Shown in pieces: positions 258-13,936 of a stretch of 13,936 bases of DNA. This DNA is from a virus, in the UHGV virus genome UHGV-0300571, one strand, 5' to 3'. The notes beneath the pieces were generated by a model. The model was not told where the DNA came from. It ran no database searches and was given only the letters and a program-made list of their open reading frames with translations. The first letter of the stretch is position 1. Each line of letters begins with the position of its first letter. Position numbers and translations under genes: made by a program.

Positions 258-337
258 GCAAAACCACGTTTACGTGGTTTTGCACTGAACCAGAATACTG
301 TTCGTCTTTATCTCTATGTCCGTACGTATTACGTACG
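258..337. repeat. Two strong palindromes downstream of the last packaging gene
   Basis: GCAAAACCACGT-TT-ACGTGGTTTTGC (258-283; 12-bp arms) and CGTACGTA-T-TACGTACG (321-337). Both have an ACGT-(A)TT-ACGT centre. The second is followed by CAGCCGCTCCGG and TTTTTT (351-356). Confidence 0.5.
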
Positions 338-622
338 CAGCCGCTCCGGTTTTTTCCACTGGTAAGTCTTTTTCTCGCTCTCCCGGTACATCTCCACGCG
401 GCGACGATATGACAACATCTCCAGAACTCTGATTCGTATGTCGCGCATATCAACGCCGTTAAGCTCGATACCGTCACGGCGCATCACCTCAGCCACCACA
501 CGCGCGTAATTTTCGGCTATCACGCTGTCCGGCTGCGTGGCCTCCTGTTTGCCTGCTTCCTGGCTGATTCCGGTAATGCGGCGGATTATTTTTAGTAGTT
601 CGGTTTCGCTCATTCTCGTCAT
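329..622 (-). CDS. Hypothetical protein (97 aa), last gene of the packaging operon
   Basis: ATG at 620-622 overlaps the TerL stop (ATGA overlap), with a GGGG stretch upstream. No motif I recognise. Stop at 329-331 lies inside a 17-bp palindrome. Confidence 0.45.
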   Translation of the reverse strand: MTRMSETELLKIIRRITGISQEAGKQEATQPDSVIAENYARVVAEVMRRDGIELNGVDMRDIRIRVLEMLSYRRRVEMYRESEKKTYQWKKPERLRT

Positions 623-2280
623 ACCCCATCAAACGCCGCAAGCCGCTCTTTGTGGCTGTCGCTCATATCAAATGCAAATTCTTCATGCTCTGCCTGGAAT
701 GTGCCAAACGCCATCAGCGCCGCAACGCTCGGGTCTATCTTGTTGGATGATTTTTTCTTGTTCGGCTTGATATTGGCGTTCGCGTCACTCTGCATCACAA
801 CATTACTCATTGACCAGGCCAGCACCGGATCACCACGATGCACAATCACCTTCCGGTTAACAAAAACTTCGAACGATTTCGCCGCCGGACTGAAACGAAG
901 GTATGTTTGCGGGAACGGCTCCACCTCAAATCCTGCGCCCTGTAGCTGCGTCCTCAGGTGCGTGGCGTTCCATGTATCGAAACCCACCAGCCTGATATTG
1001 AAATTCTCTGCATCCGCCATGATGTCATCACGGATACGGTCATAATCAATGCAGTCACCCGGTGTTGTGCGTATCCAGCCCGCCTTTACCCACTGGCGAT
1101 AGATGGCGCGGTTTTTATTGGCGGGGTTCTGTAGCTGAAATTCCGGCAGATAGTGACGGGAAACCAGCATAATCTTTTTACCGACCGGAAAGGCATAGCA
1201 CACGCTGGAAATATCGCTGGTTGATGATAAGTCCAGCCCCGCGTAGCACTCCTGCCCGTATAAATCCGCCTCCGCGAACGTTCCGGCGCACTCCGCCCAT
1301 GCACCGTTACCCATCCACGGCGTGGCCCCCTGACACCAGATATTGAATCGCTTGGTGAGCATTTCCACCCACTGCGACGGAATACCCCGCGCTTTCTGGA
1401 TGGTTGAGGCCAGTTTTTCACGATCGACGGAAACATCGATATTGGGATTCGCCTTTATCCACATCGCCGGATCGTCAACCTCGCTTTCATCATCCAGCTC
1501 GTAAATCAGCACGAACATGGATTCGTTCACCTCTTCACCATCCAGTATCTGGCAGCAATAGTCGTAGTGTTGTTTACAGGCTGAAACAACGTTGCTCCCC
1601 GATGTGGTGATGGCAAATAATAACCCCTCCGGACGCGCCCCCATTCCCAGTTCAAGCGCGGAATAAACCCCGTTGTCAGGGTGCAGGTGATATTCATCCA
1701 CAATGGCAAGACTCGGGTTTGTACCTTCAATGGTTGCCGCTTTTGCTGCCAGTGGCTTTAACAGGCTGTTGGTTTTCGGGTGTATCACCTTGTGTGCCTG
1801 AATATTTACCCGCTTTCGCAACGGTCGGGATAAAAGGCACATCTGACGCGCATCATCAAACACGATCCGCGCCTGATCACGACTCACGGCGGCGGTGTAA
1901 ATATCCTGCTGCCCGTTTTCCATAACCAGAAACCAGTTAGCCAGGATAGCGGCGACCGTGGATTTGGCATTTTTTCGCGGCACTTCAATGAATGCGCTGG
2001 TGTATTTGCGCCGTCCGGTGGCCTTAACCTTAAAGCCCAGGATGCACGCAAAGGCGAACTGCTGCCACGGCTCCAGCTCAATGGGGCTACCGCGCATTGC
2101 GCCTTTTACGTGCGGACACACCCTGGAAAAGGCAATAAACCGCTCCACGACCTCCGGATCGAACGTGTAAAGGGGGTTTTCAAGGTCAGAAAAATACCGT
2201 TTAACGGCCTGTTTCAGTCGTTTACAGGCCGTAATTTTGCCGTTTTTTACGCCTTCTGCGTACTCATGCCAGGCGGTCAA
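619..2280 (-). CDS. terL: Terminase large subunit (Terminase_1-like ATPase/nuclease)
   Basis: 553-aa ORF with typical large-terminase length and layout. C-terminal nuclease-like region ending ...IDPSVAALMAFG. Overlaps the TerS stop by 17 nt. The start is TTG at 2278-2280 with a GAGGA Shine-Dalgarno 5 nt upstream; there is no nearby in-frame ATG. Confidence 0.88.
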   Translation of the reverse strand: MTAWHEYAEGVKNGKITACKRLKQAVKRYFSDLENPLYTFDPEVVERFIAFSRVCPHVKGAMRGSPIELEPWQQFAFACILGFKVKATGRRKYTSAFIEVPRKNAKSTVAAILANWFLVMENGQQDIYTAAVSRDQARIVFDDARQMCLLSRPLRKRVNIQAHKVIHPKTNSLLKPLAAKAATIEGTNPSLAIVDEYHLHPDNGVYSALELGMGARPEGLLFAITTSGSNVVSACKQHYDYCCQILDGEEVNESMFVLIYELDDESEVDDPAMWIKANPNIDVSVDREKLASTIQKARGIPSQWVEMLTKRFNIWCQGATPWMGNGAWAECAGTFAEADLYGQECYAGLDLSSTSDISSVCYAFPVGKKIMLVSRHYLPEFQLQNPANKNRAIYRQWVKAGWIRTTPGDCIDYDRIRDDIMADAENFNIRLVGFDTWNATHLRTQLQGAGFEVEPFPQTYLRFSPAAKSFEVFVNRKVIVHRGDPVLAWSMSNVVMQSDANANIKPNKKKSSNKIDPSVAALMAFGTFQAEHEEFAFDMSDSHKERLAAFDGV

Positions 2281-2620
2281 GCTCGTCCTCTTCCTCTGTT
2301 TCCGGTGGATTTCTGCGGCGACTTACCGGGTCAAAACCCAGCAAAGAAGCCATTTTGATCATTATTCTTTCCGCGTCAGCCTTTGCGCTCAGGGCGGGGT
2401 TTCTGCTCTCGCTGCCCTGACTGTTAACAATGCTGAACCCGCGCGTGGCAAGGTCTTCGACGGCTTTGCGGTATATGGAGTAGTTAACGCAATATAGCTC
2501 CAGATTGCTCCAGTCGGCGGGGGTAAGGTCTTCCCGTCCGGAAAGCTGGCGCGATTTTTCCTTCCACTGCCTGACCGCGATTTCATCCAGGTAAGCGGGG
2601 GCTTTTGGTGGTCTTGCCAT
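2264..2620 (-). CDS. terS: Terminase small subunit (P27-family-like)
   Basis: Start assigned to ATG at 2618-2620 (MARPPKAPAYLDEI...). The sequence pattern (W..L, LELYCVNYSIY, NP, GFDP) resembles P27-family small terminases. The longer ORF-track N-terminus (to 2761) is low complexity and overlaps the putative cos region. Weak RBS. Confidence 0.7.
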   Translation of the reverse strand: MARPPKAPAYLDEIAVRQWKEKSRQLSGREDLTPADWSNLELYCVNYSIYRKAVEDLATRGFSIVNSQGSESRNPALSAKADAERIMIKMASLLGFDPVSRRRNPPETEEEDELDRLA

Positions 2621-12522: not shown

Positions 12523-13752
12523 TTATATTTCTCTGGCTATTGGCAGTGTGGTTACGTTTTCGTGAGTACCTGCCAGTATCTCTAACCGCTCTGTCCACAT
12601 GTCCAGCGCATTACGTTTCGCATCGAGATAACGGGAGTGGTTATAGACTCGCTGCATCCCTGGCATCTGGTGAGCGGTGAGTTGTTCGACAATATGCGGA
12701 TCCACGCCTAAATCGTTCAGCATTGTGGTAAACGTGCGCCGTATATCGTGCAGGGACCAGTGAGGATGGTTTAATTTTTTGTGCGTAAATCTGCCGTATT
12801 GTGACACGCTGGCTTCCTGTTTCAGTTCCCCGAGTAATAACCCTGTGTGCCTGTTCTGCTCCACCAGCTGCGTGACGAACGGCAAAATGCTTTCCGGTAT
12901 TGGCCTGAATATGGCGACCTTCGTTTTGCTGTGTTCTTTCGGTACCGTCCAGAGCATTTCCTTAAAATCCCACTCCCTGATCTCCGACAGCCTCAGTTCT
13001 CCGGTTCGGCAGCCAAACACAATCAGGAGGCGGATTAGTGCGCTGTAGTAGGGCGGGAATATTTTTTTATCCAGCGCCTGTAATAATTCGCTCAGTTCTT
13101 TGTTGCTCAGCACGCGTTCGCTTATGCCCGGCTTTTTGCCAACGTCCACCACGTTGAGATCATCCAGAACGTTACTGACTGCGTAGCGACGTTTACGGCA
13201 GAACTTAAGCGCCTGTTTACACGCCTGCATCATGTGACCAGACGTTACGGGGGATTTTTTGCGTATCCGGTCAAAACAGGCCAGCCAGTGACGCAACTCG
13301 CATTTATCCAGTGGCATATTGCCAATATGCTGTATGACGTGATTATTCAGGCGGCTTTTCAGGGAGACGTAATCGACACGGTTTTCCTTTACGTGCATTT
13401 CCAGCCAGTAGCTGATCGCATCACCCACCGTTACCGGCTTTAGTGCTTCCTGTATGGAGTAATTAAGCTCATGGCGTGGATTTTTTCCCTCTGCCAGCCA
13501 TGCGCGACACTGTGCTGCTTTTTCTCTGGCTGCTTTCAGGCTCAGATCAGGATAATTTCCCAGCTTCAGGCGTTCCGGTGATACCTGGCGTCCTGTTCCT
13601 GCCCTGTAGGTGAAATACCAGGTTAACAGGCCGCTGGTGGAGTGTCTGATACTCAGGTTTCCACCGTCATTAAGAAATGTGGTTTTTGGGGCTGGTGTGC
13701 CGTTGATTTTTCTTAGCTGTGTATCGCTCAGTTTGTTAAGTGCTCTGCTCAT
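12523..13752 (-). CDS. int: Tyrosine site-specific integrase (P4-like family)
   Basis: Arm-binding-like N-terminal domain (...LSDTQLRKINGTPAPKTTFLNDGGNLSIRHSTSGLLTWYFTYR...) and a C-terminal catalytic region with ...HDIRRTF...HQMPGMQRVYNHSRY... (catalytic Tyr context). Start is uncertain: ATG at 13750-13752 is preferred, with in-frame ATG at 13770 and GTG at 13773 as alternatives. Confidence 0.9.
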   Translation of the reverse strand: MSRALNKLSDTQLRKINGTPAPKTTFLNDGGNLSIRHSTSGLLTWYFTYRAGTGRQVSPERLKLGNYPDLSLKAAREKAAQCRAWLAEGKNPRHELNYSIQEALKPVTVGDAISYWLEMHVKENRVDYVSLKSRLNNHVIQHIGNMPLDKCELRHWLACFDRIRKKSPVTSGHMMQACKQALKFCRKRRYAVSNVLDDLNVVDVGKKPGISERVLSNKELSELLQALDKKIFPPYYSALIRLLIVFGCRTGELRLSEIREWDFKEMLWTVPKEHSKTKVAIFRPIPESILPFVTQLVEQNRHTGLLLGELKQEASVSQYGRFTHKKLNHPHWSLHDIRRTFTTMLNDLGVDPHIVEQLTAHQMPGMQRVYNHSRYLDAKRNALDMWTERLEILAGTHENVTTLPIAREI

Positions 13753-13775
13753 AATTTTGAATCCGGTCATCACAA

Positions 13776-13842
13776 TTAACTACACCATTAACTACACCGA
13801 TCATTGCACAAGGGGGTACAACGTGGAACAAGTTGGAACAAG
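13776..13842. promoter_or_regulatory. int upstream region: tandem TTAACTACACC (x2) and tandem GGAACAAG (x2, 10-bp phase)
   Basis: TTAACTACACC at 13776-13786 and 13788-13798. GGAACAAG at 13825-13832 and 13835-13842, which reads CTTGTTCC on the minus strand and so matches the TTGTTC motif at 6807-6832 and 12442-12467. Confidence 0.45.
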
Positions 13843-13936
13843 AAAAATTGCAATGAGCTTAAAAATCAAAAACATAATGAACAACGTGGCACATTATGAA
13901 ACAGCAAAAAACACTAATTTATAAAAATCCGCTATT

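Follow-up and report, generated by a model that had tools for sequence, protein, structure and literature searches.

The 13,936-nucleotide virus genome UHGV-0300571 (here called the window, meaning the whole stretch of DNA that was analysed) covers the larger part of a 15,432-bp island in Escherichia coli. We read this island as a capsid-forming phage-inducible chromosomal island (cf-PICI) closely related to the prototype EcCIEDL933, and assign that reading a probability of about 0.88. This identity follows from domain matches for every core gene, synteny with EcCIEDL933, the match of the major capsid protein (MCP) to the structure PDB 9GYI and the gene order of the family, as well as from exact attachment (att) limits, an attP junction, flanking host genes, iterons above chance expectation and purifying selection. 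The cf-PICIs are a published kind (2022–2023) with E. coli as type host, and this exact sequence is already present in public assemblies, such that the island is an uncharacterised member of a known family and not a new system. Its distinguishing feature is the absence of the head-closure gene (Hc1, gp7-like and SPP1 gp16-like), which EcCIEDL933 cannot do without.

Head and packaging genes

Genes were called from Pfam and PHROG searches of the open reading frames (ORFs) of the window, and all coordinates are those of the window. The minus strand carries almost all of the long ORFs. The head and packaging genes are listed with their best matches and their amino acid identity to the EcCIEDL933 homologues.

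5467–6612, minus strand: major capsid protein, HK97 fold, with N-terminal delta domain (Phage_capsid 1e-60; 75%)
4857–5417, minus strand: prohead serine protease, S78 (Peptidase_S78 9e-45; 62%)
3641–4855, minus strand: portal (Pfam 9e-93; 81%)
3349–3648, minus strand: gp6-like head-tail connector, Ad1 (PHROG 40 'head-tail adaptor Ad1' 1e-27; 58% to Ad1)
2909–3349, minus strand: HNH endonuclease, packaging accessory (Pfam HNH 1.3e-9; 84%)
2740–2925, minus strand: 61-amino acid (aa) protein, p61 (PHROG 3173; 82% to the small gene between HNH and terS)
2636–2705, minus strand: putative cos region just upstream of terS, extrapolated from the ends of the vB_KppS-Ant record
2264–2620, minus strand: TerS, P27/Terminase_4 family (Terminase_4 4e-23; 88%)
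619–2280, minus strand: TerL (nuclease domain 2e-52, ATPase domain 4e-26; 93%)
329–622, minus strand: 97-aa protein, p97, function unknown, conserved after terL (PHROG 1561; 75%)

A preliminary description of the window, made from the letters alone, had proposed a cf-PICI-like satellite with a complete HK97-type set of head and packaging genes. The cf-PICI reading is borne out by collinearity with EcCIEDL933 (E. coli O157:H7 EDL933, NZ_CP008957.1 about 1,680,329–1,694,760), which extends from int to the small gene after terL and in which 18 of the 21 island genes have homologues (43–93% identity); by the published gene order, considered below; and by the MCP, which matched 9GYI with an E value of 9.6e-187. 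The latter is the EcCIEDL933 capsid, a T=4 particle of 47.5 nm with a 15.5-kb genome inside. All of the named head and packaging genes were recovered by Pfam or PHROG, and the head genes matched HK97-type families, with only the gp6-like connector giving a weak Pfam match (8.6e-4). The set is nevertheless incomplete by the standard of its own family, as Hc1 is missing. No window ORF matched a tail, holin or lysin family in these searches, in agreement with the earlier view that such genes are lacking. Counting genes from 1786 (capsid), the EcCIEDL933 homologue of p61 is probably 'gene 1792'.

The position of the cos site was approached through vB_KppS-Ant, a linear, particle-derived record whose ends flank ~69 nt that align to window 2636–2705 and that are present in the integrated Klebsiella island. 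cf-PICI DNA has been reported to have cohesive ends, and by analogy the cos site of the island probably lies at 2636–2705. The adjoining block at window 2706–2740, GGGGTGGGGGAGGTTTTCAGGAC, lies at the end of the 61-aa gene and is nearly invariant in three islands (window, EcCIEDL933 and Klebsiella) that are otherwise 75–85% identical; it may be a recognition element for terminase or HNH.

Family membership and gene order

The SatelliteFinder model of cf-PICIs, as given in the main text of de Sousa et al. 2023, has 11 core components and forbids tails and holins; its 'Type B' cf-PICIs, 459 of 969 elements, are allowed 10 of the 11, and this main text does not state which component is missing from Type B variants. 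The island encodes the integrase, AlpA, MCP, protease, portal, gp6-like connector, HNH, TerS and TerL of the model, and the primase/replicase component would be represented by a RepA-type helicase (AAA_25) that lies next to the iterons. Neither tail nor holin genes were found inside the island, and host genes lie beyond both att ends. The head-tail adaptor (Hc1) is the component that we did not find; since 10 of 11 components are allowed by the model as described there, the island stays in the family as an incomplete variant. Classical PICIs, for which portal, TerL and head-tail genes are forbidden, do not accommodate an element with a portal, TerL and a connector. An intact HK97-like prophage would bring tail, lysis and immunity modules in ~40 kb, and the island is a 15.4-kb unit between att cores.

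Proteobacterial cf-PICIs have the conserved order capsid-protease-portal-connector, then hnh-terS-terL (Alqurainy et al.), and the island fits both this order and their size of ~14–15 kb (15,432 bp). An order inverted relative to HK97, with the terminase at the distal end, had been pointed out in the preliminary description and is thus the published organisation of these elements. We also scanned one genome per species for related loci and obtained 80, all of which (80/80) kept this order. The genera included Klebsiella, Enterobacter, Citrobacter, Kosakonia, Proteus, Providencia, Xenorhabdus, Photorhabdus, Pantoea, Erwinia, Yersinia and Gilliamella, among others. Xenorhabdus genomes had many head-module copies each, with 3–5 loci in each of X. 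innexi, X. mauleonii, X. anantnagensis, X. khoisanae and X. kozodoii, and some portals of the Xenorhabdus/Photorhabdus loci were interrupted or truncated.

Island limits, insertion site and mobility

Fetched stretches of three public assemblies were 100% identical to the window across positions 70–13936 (13,867 bases, the extent reached by those stretches). Comparison with the identical public copies showed that the window spans the first 13,936 bp of the 15,432-bp island and leaves out the last 1.5 kb; the earlier estimate of about 13.5 kb was therefore too short, since a Fic gene and the distal att site lie just past the end of the window. The integrase end of the island abuts a 5' fragment of yifB/comM, beyond which lies the ilv operon. 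On the opposite side the island runs on for 1,496 bp, with a gene for a 380-aa Fic-domain protein as its final gene, and is followed by the remainder of yifB, maoP and hdfR, placing the insertion inside yifB/comM with the ilv operon nearby. Extension of the flanks, which had been suggested as a check, thus yielded both the host gene and the 10-bp att cores described below. Tail and lysis genes contiguous with the module, which would have made it an ordinary prophage, were looked for beyond the window in the identical copies, and only the Fic gene and, past both island ends, host genes were found.

Assembly GCA_964045785.1 carries two 100%-identical copies of the island, on contig 1 and contig 12, one in yifB and the other between proX and a major facilitator superfamily (MFS) transporter gene. 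Comparing these two insertions set the island ends to the base, giving 15,432 bp with the 10-mer AATAGCGGAT at both.

13927–13936: att core AATAGCGGAT (minus-strand reading), the integrase-side boundary; the copies at the two chromosomal sites stay identical right up to this 10-mer
13775–13840, minus strand: putative integrase arm-type sites, two copies of GTGTAGTTAAT and two of TTGTTCCA, in a ~69-nt block repeated near the other island end

The empty proX-MFS intergenic site (stretch L101, 190–225) contains the exact core AATAGCGGAT once, with a right flank that is partly similar (GATGAATAT). As the core is present once in the unoccupied site, the second copy is a true site-specific insertion into a secondary attB. 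The GTGTAGTTAAT/TTGTTCCA repeat blocks in both arms are probably arm-type sites to which the integrase would bind. A short-read contig (ERR13033338) spans the Fic and integrase ends, joined via the 10-bp core, with 100% identity; this junction is an attP, from either an excised circle or a tandem. A metagenome contig found in 13 samples was exactly 15,432 bp long, and its fetched end starts exactly at the integrase-side boundary. Overall, the attP junction contig and the second identical copy at a secondary attB show that the island is mobile.

The Fic protein (island ~13,937–15,079) matched the PADLOC 'SoFic' anti-phage defence model (6.7e-49) and Pfam Fic (7.7e-18). Its gene is missing from some close relatives, such as that of strain E500002, and in strain TUM9757 it is flanked by a 73-bp repeat (the equivalent of window 147–219), which suggests that the Fic/SoFic gene is a swappable cargo cassette.

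Integration, regulation and replication genes

Pfam matches placed a P4-type integrase, alpA and a replication initiator where the preliminary description had put them. These and the remaining features of the early half of the island are given below; percentages are again identities to EcCIEDL933.

12523–13752, minus strand: P4-type tyrosine integrase, 409 aa (Arm-DNA-bind_3 4e-18, Phage_integrase 7e-17; 87%)
11964–12152, minus strand: AlpA regulator (Pfam Phage_AlpA 2.7e-18; 92% to AlpA)
8353–9768, minus strand: RepA-type replication initiator/helicase, 471 aa (AAA_25 Pfam 6e-44; PHROG 2850 1e-250)
8162–8350: predicted replication origin directly downstream of rep, eight iterons TCCCCACT (seven direct, one inverted) around an AT-rich centre
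7900–8151, minus strand: 83-aa protein, function unknown (PHROG 1231; 84%)
7478–7903, minus strand: single-stranded DNA-binding protein, SSB (Pfam SSB 2.3e-16; 70%)
7181–7462, minus strand: PerC-family regulator (Pfam PerC 3e-35; 60%)
6887–7135, minus strand: 82-aa protein, function unknown (PHROG 1957; 43%)
11023–11693, plus strand: divergent unit, two ORFs between a promoter-like site and a strong terminator
11023–11051, plus strand: promoter-like site of the divergent unit (promoter scan)
11133–11312, plus strand: YlcI/YnfO-like ORF (RefSeq annotation of relatives)
11370–11567, plus strand: second small ORF of the divergent unit
11668–11693, plus strand: terminator of the divergent unit (terminator scan)
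10727–10933, minus strand: Icd-like small protein, first gene of the early leftward operon (RefSeq relatives; 48%)
10070–10737, minus strand: three small early ORFs of 79, 77 and 69 aa (PHROGs 5146/2512, 24341 and 2196, function unknown)
9765–10064, minus strand: DUF4222 protein (Pfam 2.2e-24; 66%)

The replication protein is annotated as a RepA-family helicase in RefSeq relatives, and its N-terminal 134 aa are 66% identical to the DUF927 primase of EcCIEDL933. The iterons, which had also been noted from the letters alone, are real: the TCCCCACT octamer occurs eight times within 190 bp, cf. 0.34 occurrences expected by chance, and no shuffle (0/200) reached eight. From its position beside rep and the precedent of Staphylococcus aureus pathogenicity islands (SaPIs) and PICIs, we infer that this block acts as the origin; PICIs classically have an iteron origin after rep. 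PerC-family regulators, such as the one encoded here, are common in Gram-negative PICIs.

The genes are not, as had been thought, all on one strand, since the ORFs at 11133–11312 and 11370–11567 are on the plus strand. AT skew flips at this divergent unit, which also gave a PHROG 949 match (9e-19) and is possibly regulatory. A 394-aa ORF at 10727–11911 on the minus strand was ruled out as a gene by its composition, by RefSeq relatives and by the antisense plus-strand ORFs with their promoter and terminator, and only its Icd-like 3' end is genuine. In tblastn, part of this frame (10745–11233) matched at 36% an ORF of 324 aa annotated in vB_KppS-Ant, which is probably a conserved regulatory region mis-called as a gene in that record. 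There were no tRNAs in the window, and an Rfam scan of the whole window (E ≤ 0.1) returned no match, including no Rfam-recognisable RNA of the P4 CI/C4 type.

Absence of the head-closure gene

In necks of the SPP1/HK97 type, the adaptor ring is followed by the head-closure protein, which acts as a plug. EcCIEDL933, the Klebsiella island KpCIDSM30104/vB_KppS-Ant and most surveyed loci have Hc1 (~112 aa) and then the gp6-like connector between portal and HNH. In the island, portal and connector overlap at their stop and start codons, respectively, and the gap from portal to HNH has room for only one gene. A tblastn search of the window with Hc1 gave no match (best E 0.53), and in all six reading frames of the full island an Hc1 profile built from 55 family sequences reached no better than E = 0.9, cf. 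2e-42 on the EcCIEDL933 control. The small proteins p61 and p97 were rejected as substitutes because EcCIEDL933 has homologues of both besides Hc1; the island has no extra gene able to replace Hc1.

Between EDL933 and Klebsiella, protein identity was 35% for Hc1 and 62% for Ad1. The published figures for these two islands are 35% for the 'adaptors' and 63% for the 'connectors', and their agreement with our values identifies the published 'adaptor' as Hc1. Adaptor and connector together determine the tail compatibility of cf-PICI capsids, and when each gene of the EcCIEDL933 packaging module was mutated singly, transfer was abolished, except for gene 1792, for which it was severely reduced. No discussion of adaptor-less cf-PICIs came up in the set of papers that was searched.

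Hc1 was missing in about 10 of the ~70 informative species loci, namely those of Leclercia, two Pantoea, Erwinia psidii, two Xenorhabdus, Symbiopectobacterium, Yersinia aleksiciae and one Gilliamella. These loci are spread over the portal tree in roughly seven separate places and several genera, and the nearest relative of the Gilliamella locus, with an almost identical portal, carries Hc1. Two adaptor-less Symbiopectobacterium loci (L073 8999–9292 and L074 8221–8514) had a weak Hc1-like tblastn match (26%) downstream of HNH that could be a relocated or decayed head-closure gene. A search of 5,426 complete E. coli genomes recovered the portal-connector-HNH junction of the window type from 143, at 90–99% identity. 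Compared to the relative in strain E500002, the head and packaging genes had no internal stops and gave dN/dS values of 0.06 (portal), 0.06 (protease), 0.10 (MCP), 0.17 (connector) and 0.04 (TerL). The head genes are thus under strong purifying selection within the adaptor-less lineage.

The connector of the window was also compared with 50,697 phage records, among which no helper candidate was found; true phages reached at most 38% identity, and the only matches above 40% were cf-PICIs deposited as 'phages'. Several GenBank 'phage' records are in fact cf-PICIs or fragments of them (OR845787, OR850982, OR544139 and OR544138), and such records include a 1.6-kb piece from E. coli ATCC 43895, Pasteurella Pmp8 (15.3 kb, with Hc1 and Ad1) and Pmp7. 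We take E. coli ATCC 43895 to be strain EDL933 under its culture-collection listing. Pmp8 was considered as a packaged adaptor-less island and rejected, as Hc1 is present.

Weighing of alternative explanations

Some points weigh against the identification as a working cf-PICI. The island is known from its sequence alone and no helper phage is known for it; it has no adaptor gene, although mutants in the packaging module of EcCIEDL933 lost transfer; the attP junction could stem from a tandem insertion and not from a free circle; and the position of cos is extrapolated from the record ends of another island.

The missing adaptor raises the possibility that the island is a crippled cf-PICI, which through the loss of Hc1 makes no infectious particles of its own and persists integrated, still excising and replicating, and spreading only vertically or by generalized transduction. 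The losses of transfer in EcCIEDL933 mutants, which the helper HK106 evidently did not complement, agree with this explanation, as does the ability of KpCIDSM30104 to move by generalized transduction independently of its capsid. Such a dead end is hard to square, however, with adaptor-less forms that recur at ~7 places on the portal tree in several genera, and neither the intact and strongly selected head and packaging genes, nor the frequency of the junction in E. coli, nor identical copies in unrelated assemblies and at two sites of one genome, are what it would lead one to expect. We therefore consider a crippled element unlikely.

Head and terminase proteins of HK97-type families would also be accounted for by an HK97-like prophage in decay, from which the tail, lysis and regulatory regions had disappeared. 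We regard this explanation as very improbable, because the gene order is unlike that of HK97 and fixed in 80 loci of many genera with a conserved size of roughly 15 kb, the early region is the int-alpA-rep module common to classical PICIs, the att ends are precise and accompanied by an attP junction, and true phages do not exceed 38% identity to the connector, with megablast finding no real phage. A P4-like satellite, suggested by the P4-type integrase, AlpA and the Icd-like gene, can be set aside almost entirely, as no homologue of sid, psu, delta or the alpha primase was found among the window ORFs (Pfam and PHROG) and the island, unlike P4, encodes its own capsid, portal and terminase.

The preferred reading is thus a cf-PICI, more likely a functional variant that would complete its heads differently than a dead element; we favour function because Hc1 loss is recurrent, the junction is widespread in E. 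coli and the head genes are under purifying selection. More specifically, we tentatively propose a recurrent, functional adaptor-less form of cf-PICI, with portal-plus-connector capsids that either need the head-closure protein of a helper or have tails docking directly on the gp6-like ring, although we hold this to be possible and not probable.

Proposed life cycle and significance

Helper induction, island capsids and helper-tail-dependent transfer have been shown experimentally for EcCIEDL933 and KpCIDSM30104 only. In EcCIEDL933, alpA was required for induction and helper tail mutants abolished transfer. The island itself sits in yifB/comM, integrated via its P4-type integrase on the 10-bp core AATAGCGGAT, a step for which the boundaries and the attP junction were observed. 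By extension, a helper phage would activate alpA, as in EcCIEDL933. Its anatomy suggests that excision would be followed by replication from its own iteron origin with the RepA-type helicase and SSB. With MCP, protease and portal supplied by its late operon, the island would then build a small capsid of the HK97 fold, probably with T=4 symmetry given the 75–81% identity to proteins with a solved capsid and the matching genome size. HNH, TerS and TerL would cleave the island DNA for packaging at a cos site that, going by the ends of the packaged Klebsiella relative, lies immediately upstream of terS. Tails and lysis would be supplied by the helper phage, since the island has neither. With only a connector and no Hc1, the last step of head completion must differ from that of the cf-PICIs studied so far, and most likely the island would use the helper's head-closure protein together with the helper's tail.

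Taken as a cf-PICI, the island agrees with existing knowledge of the family, i.e. that its members are common in Enterobacterales, carry defence cargo (here of the SoFic type) and move from site to site. The lack of an adaptor is a modest and testable variant feature. An adaptor-less lineage with selected capsid genes, mobility and parallels in other genera suggests a second way to complete satellite capsids. If such a form is functional, it would not by itself make the stable, sealed, tail-less capsids of the 'tail piracy' model, and its host range would depend on which helpers have a head-closure protein that fits the island connector.

Comparison with known systems

Like the island, EcCIEDL933 is about 15.4 kb long, and both carry SSB, PerC, DUF4222 and Icd-like genes. 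In EcCIEDL933, unlike in the island, portal and connector are separated by a 112-aa head-closure ('adaptor') gene; EcCIEDL933 also sits between roxA and phoQ and not in yifB, and lacks Fic/SoFic cargo, whereas the island carries a Fic gene. Their replication proteins also differ, being a 710-aa DUF927 primase-helicase in EcCIEDL933 and a 471-aa RepA-type helicase in the island.

KpCIDSM30104, deposited as 'Escherichia phage vB_KppS-Ant' (LR881103; K. pneumoniae ATCC 13883), has the same order of head and packaging genes as the island, with identities of 89% (portal), 85% (protease), 85% (TerS), 83% (TerL), 75% (HNH), 68% (MCP) and 60% (connector). In contrast to the island, it has a head-closure gene, an integrase that is only 49% identical, a different regulator and primase, and a 765-aa tape-measure-like gene after terL. 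That gene (LR881103.1 2036–4333) matched the tape-measure family PHROG 2854 at 2e-176, which is odd for a family defined by the absence of tail genes. The 16.5-kb vB_KppS-Ant is itself a cf-PICI; its Hc1 and Ad1 match, with 100% identity, the corresponding proteins of the island in K. pneumoniae ATCC 13883 (= DSM 30104). The release of tail-less, DNA-filled capsids has been shown experimentally for KpCIDSM30104.

Classical E. coli PICIs at the yejM site (EcCICFT073 type) have an early/replication module near-identical to that of the island: the 69-aa ORF is identical, and the DUF4222, RepA, origin and SSB region is ~93% identical at the DNA level. In these elements, lambda gpE-like (Phage_cap_E), gpD-like (HDPD) and Nu1-like genes replace the HK97-type capsid, portal and terminase set, and they are therefore dependent on helper capsids. 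The left halves of PICIs and cf-PICIs have been described as modular and common to both. One yejM-site PICI (L013) had an IS21 element inserted just after rep.

The head module of phage HK97 draws on the same families as the island, i.e. the MCP fold, S78 protease, portal, gp6 connector, HNH, TerS and TerL. Unlike HK97, the island runs morphogenesis first, from capsid to portal, with the terminase last; it has no tail, lysis or lysogeny-switch genes, and its capsid is presumed to be T=4, cf. T=7 for HK97.

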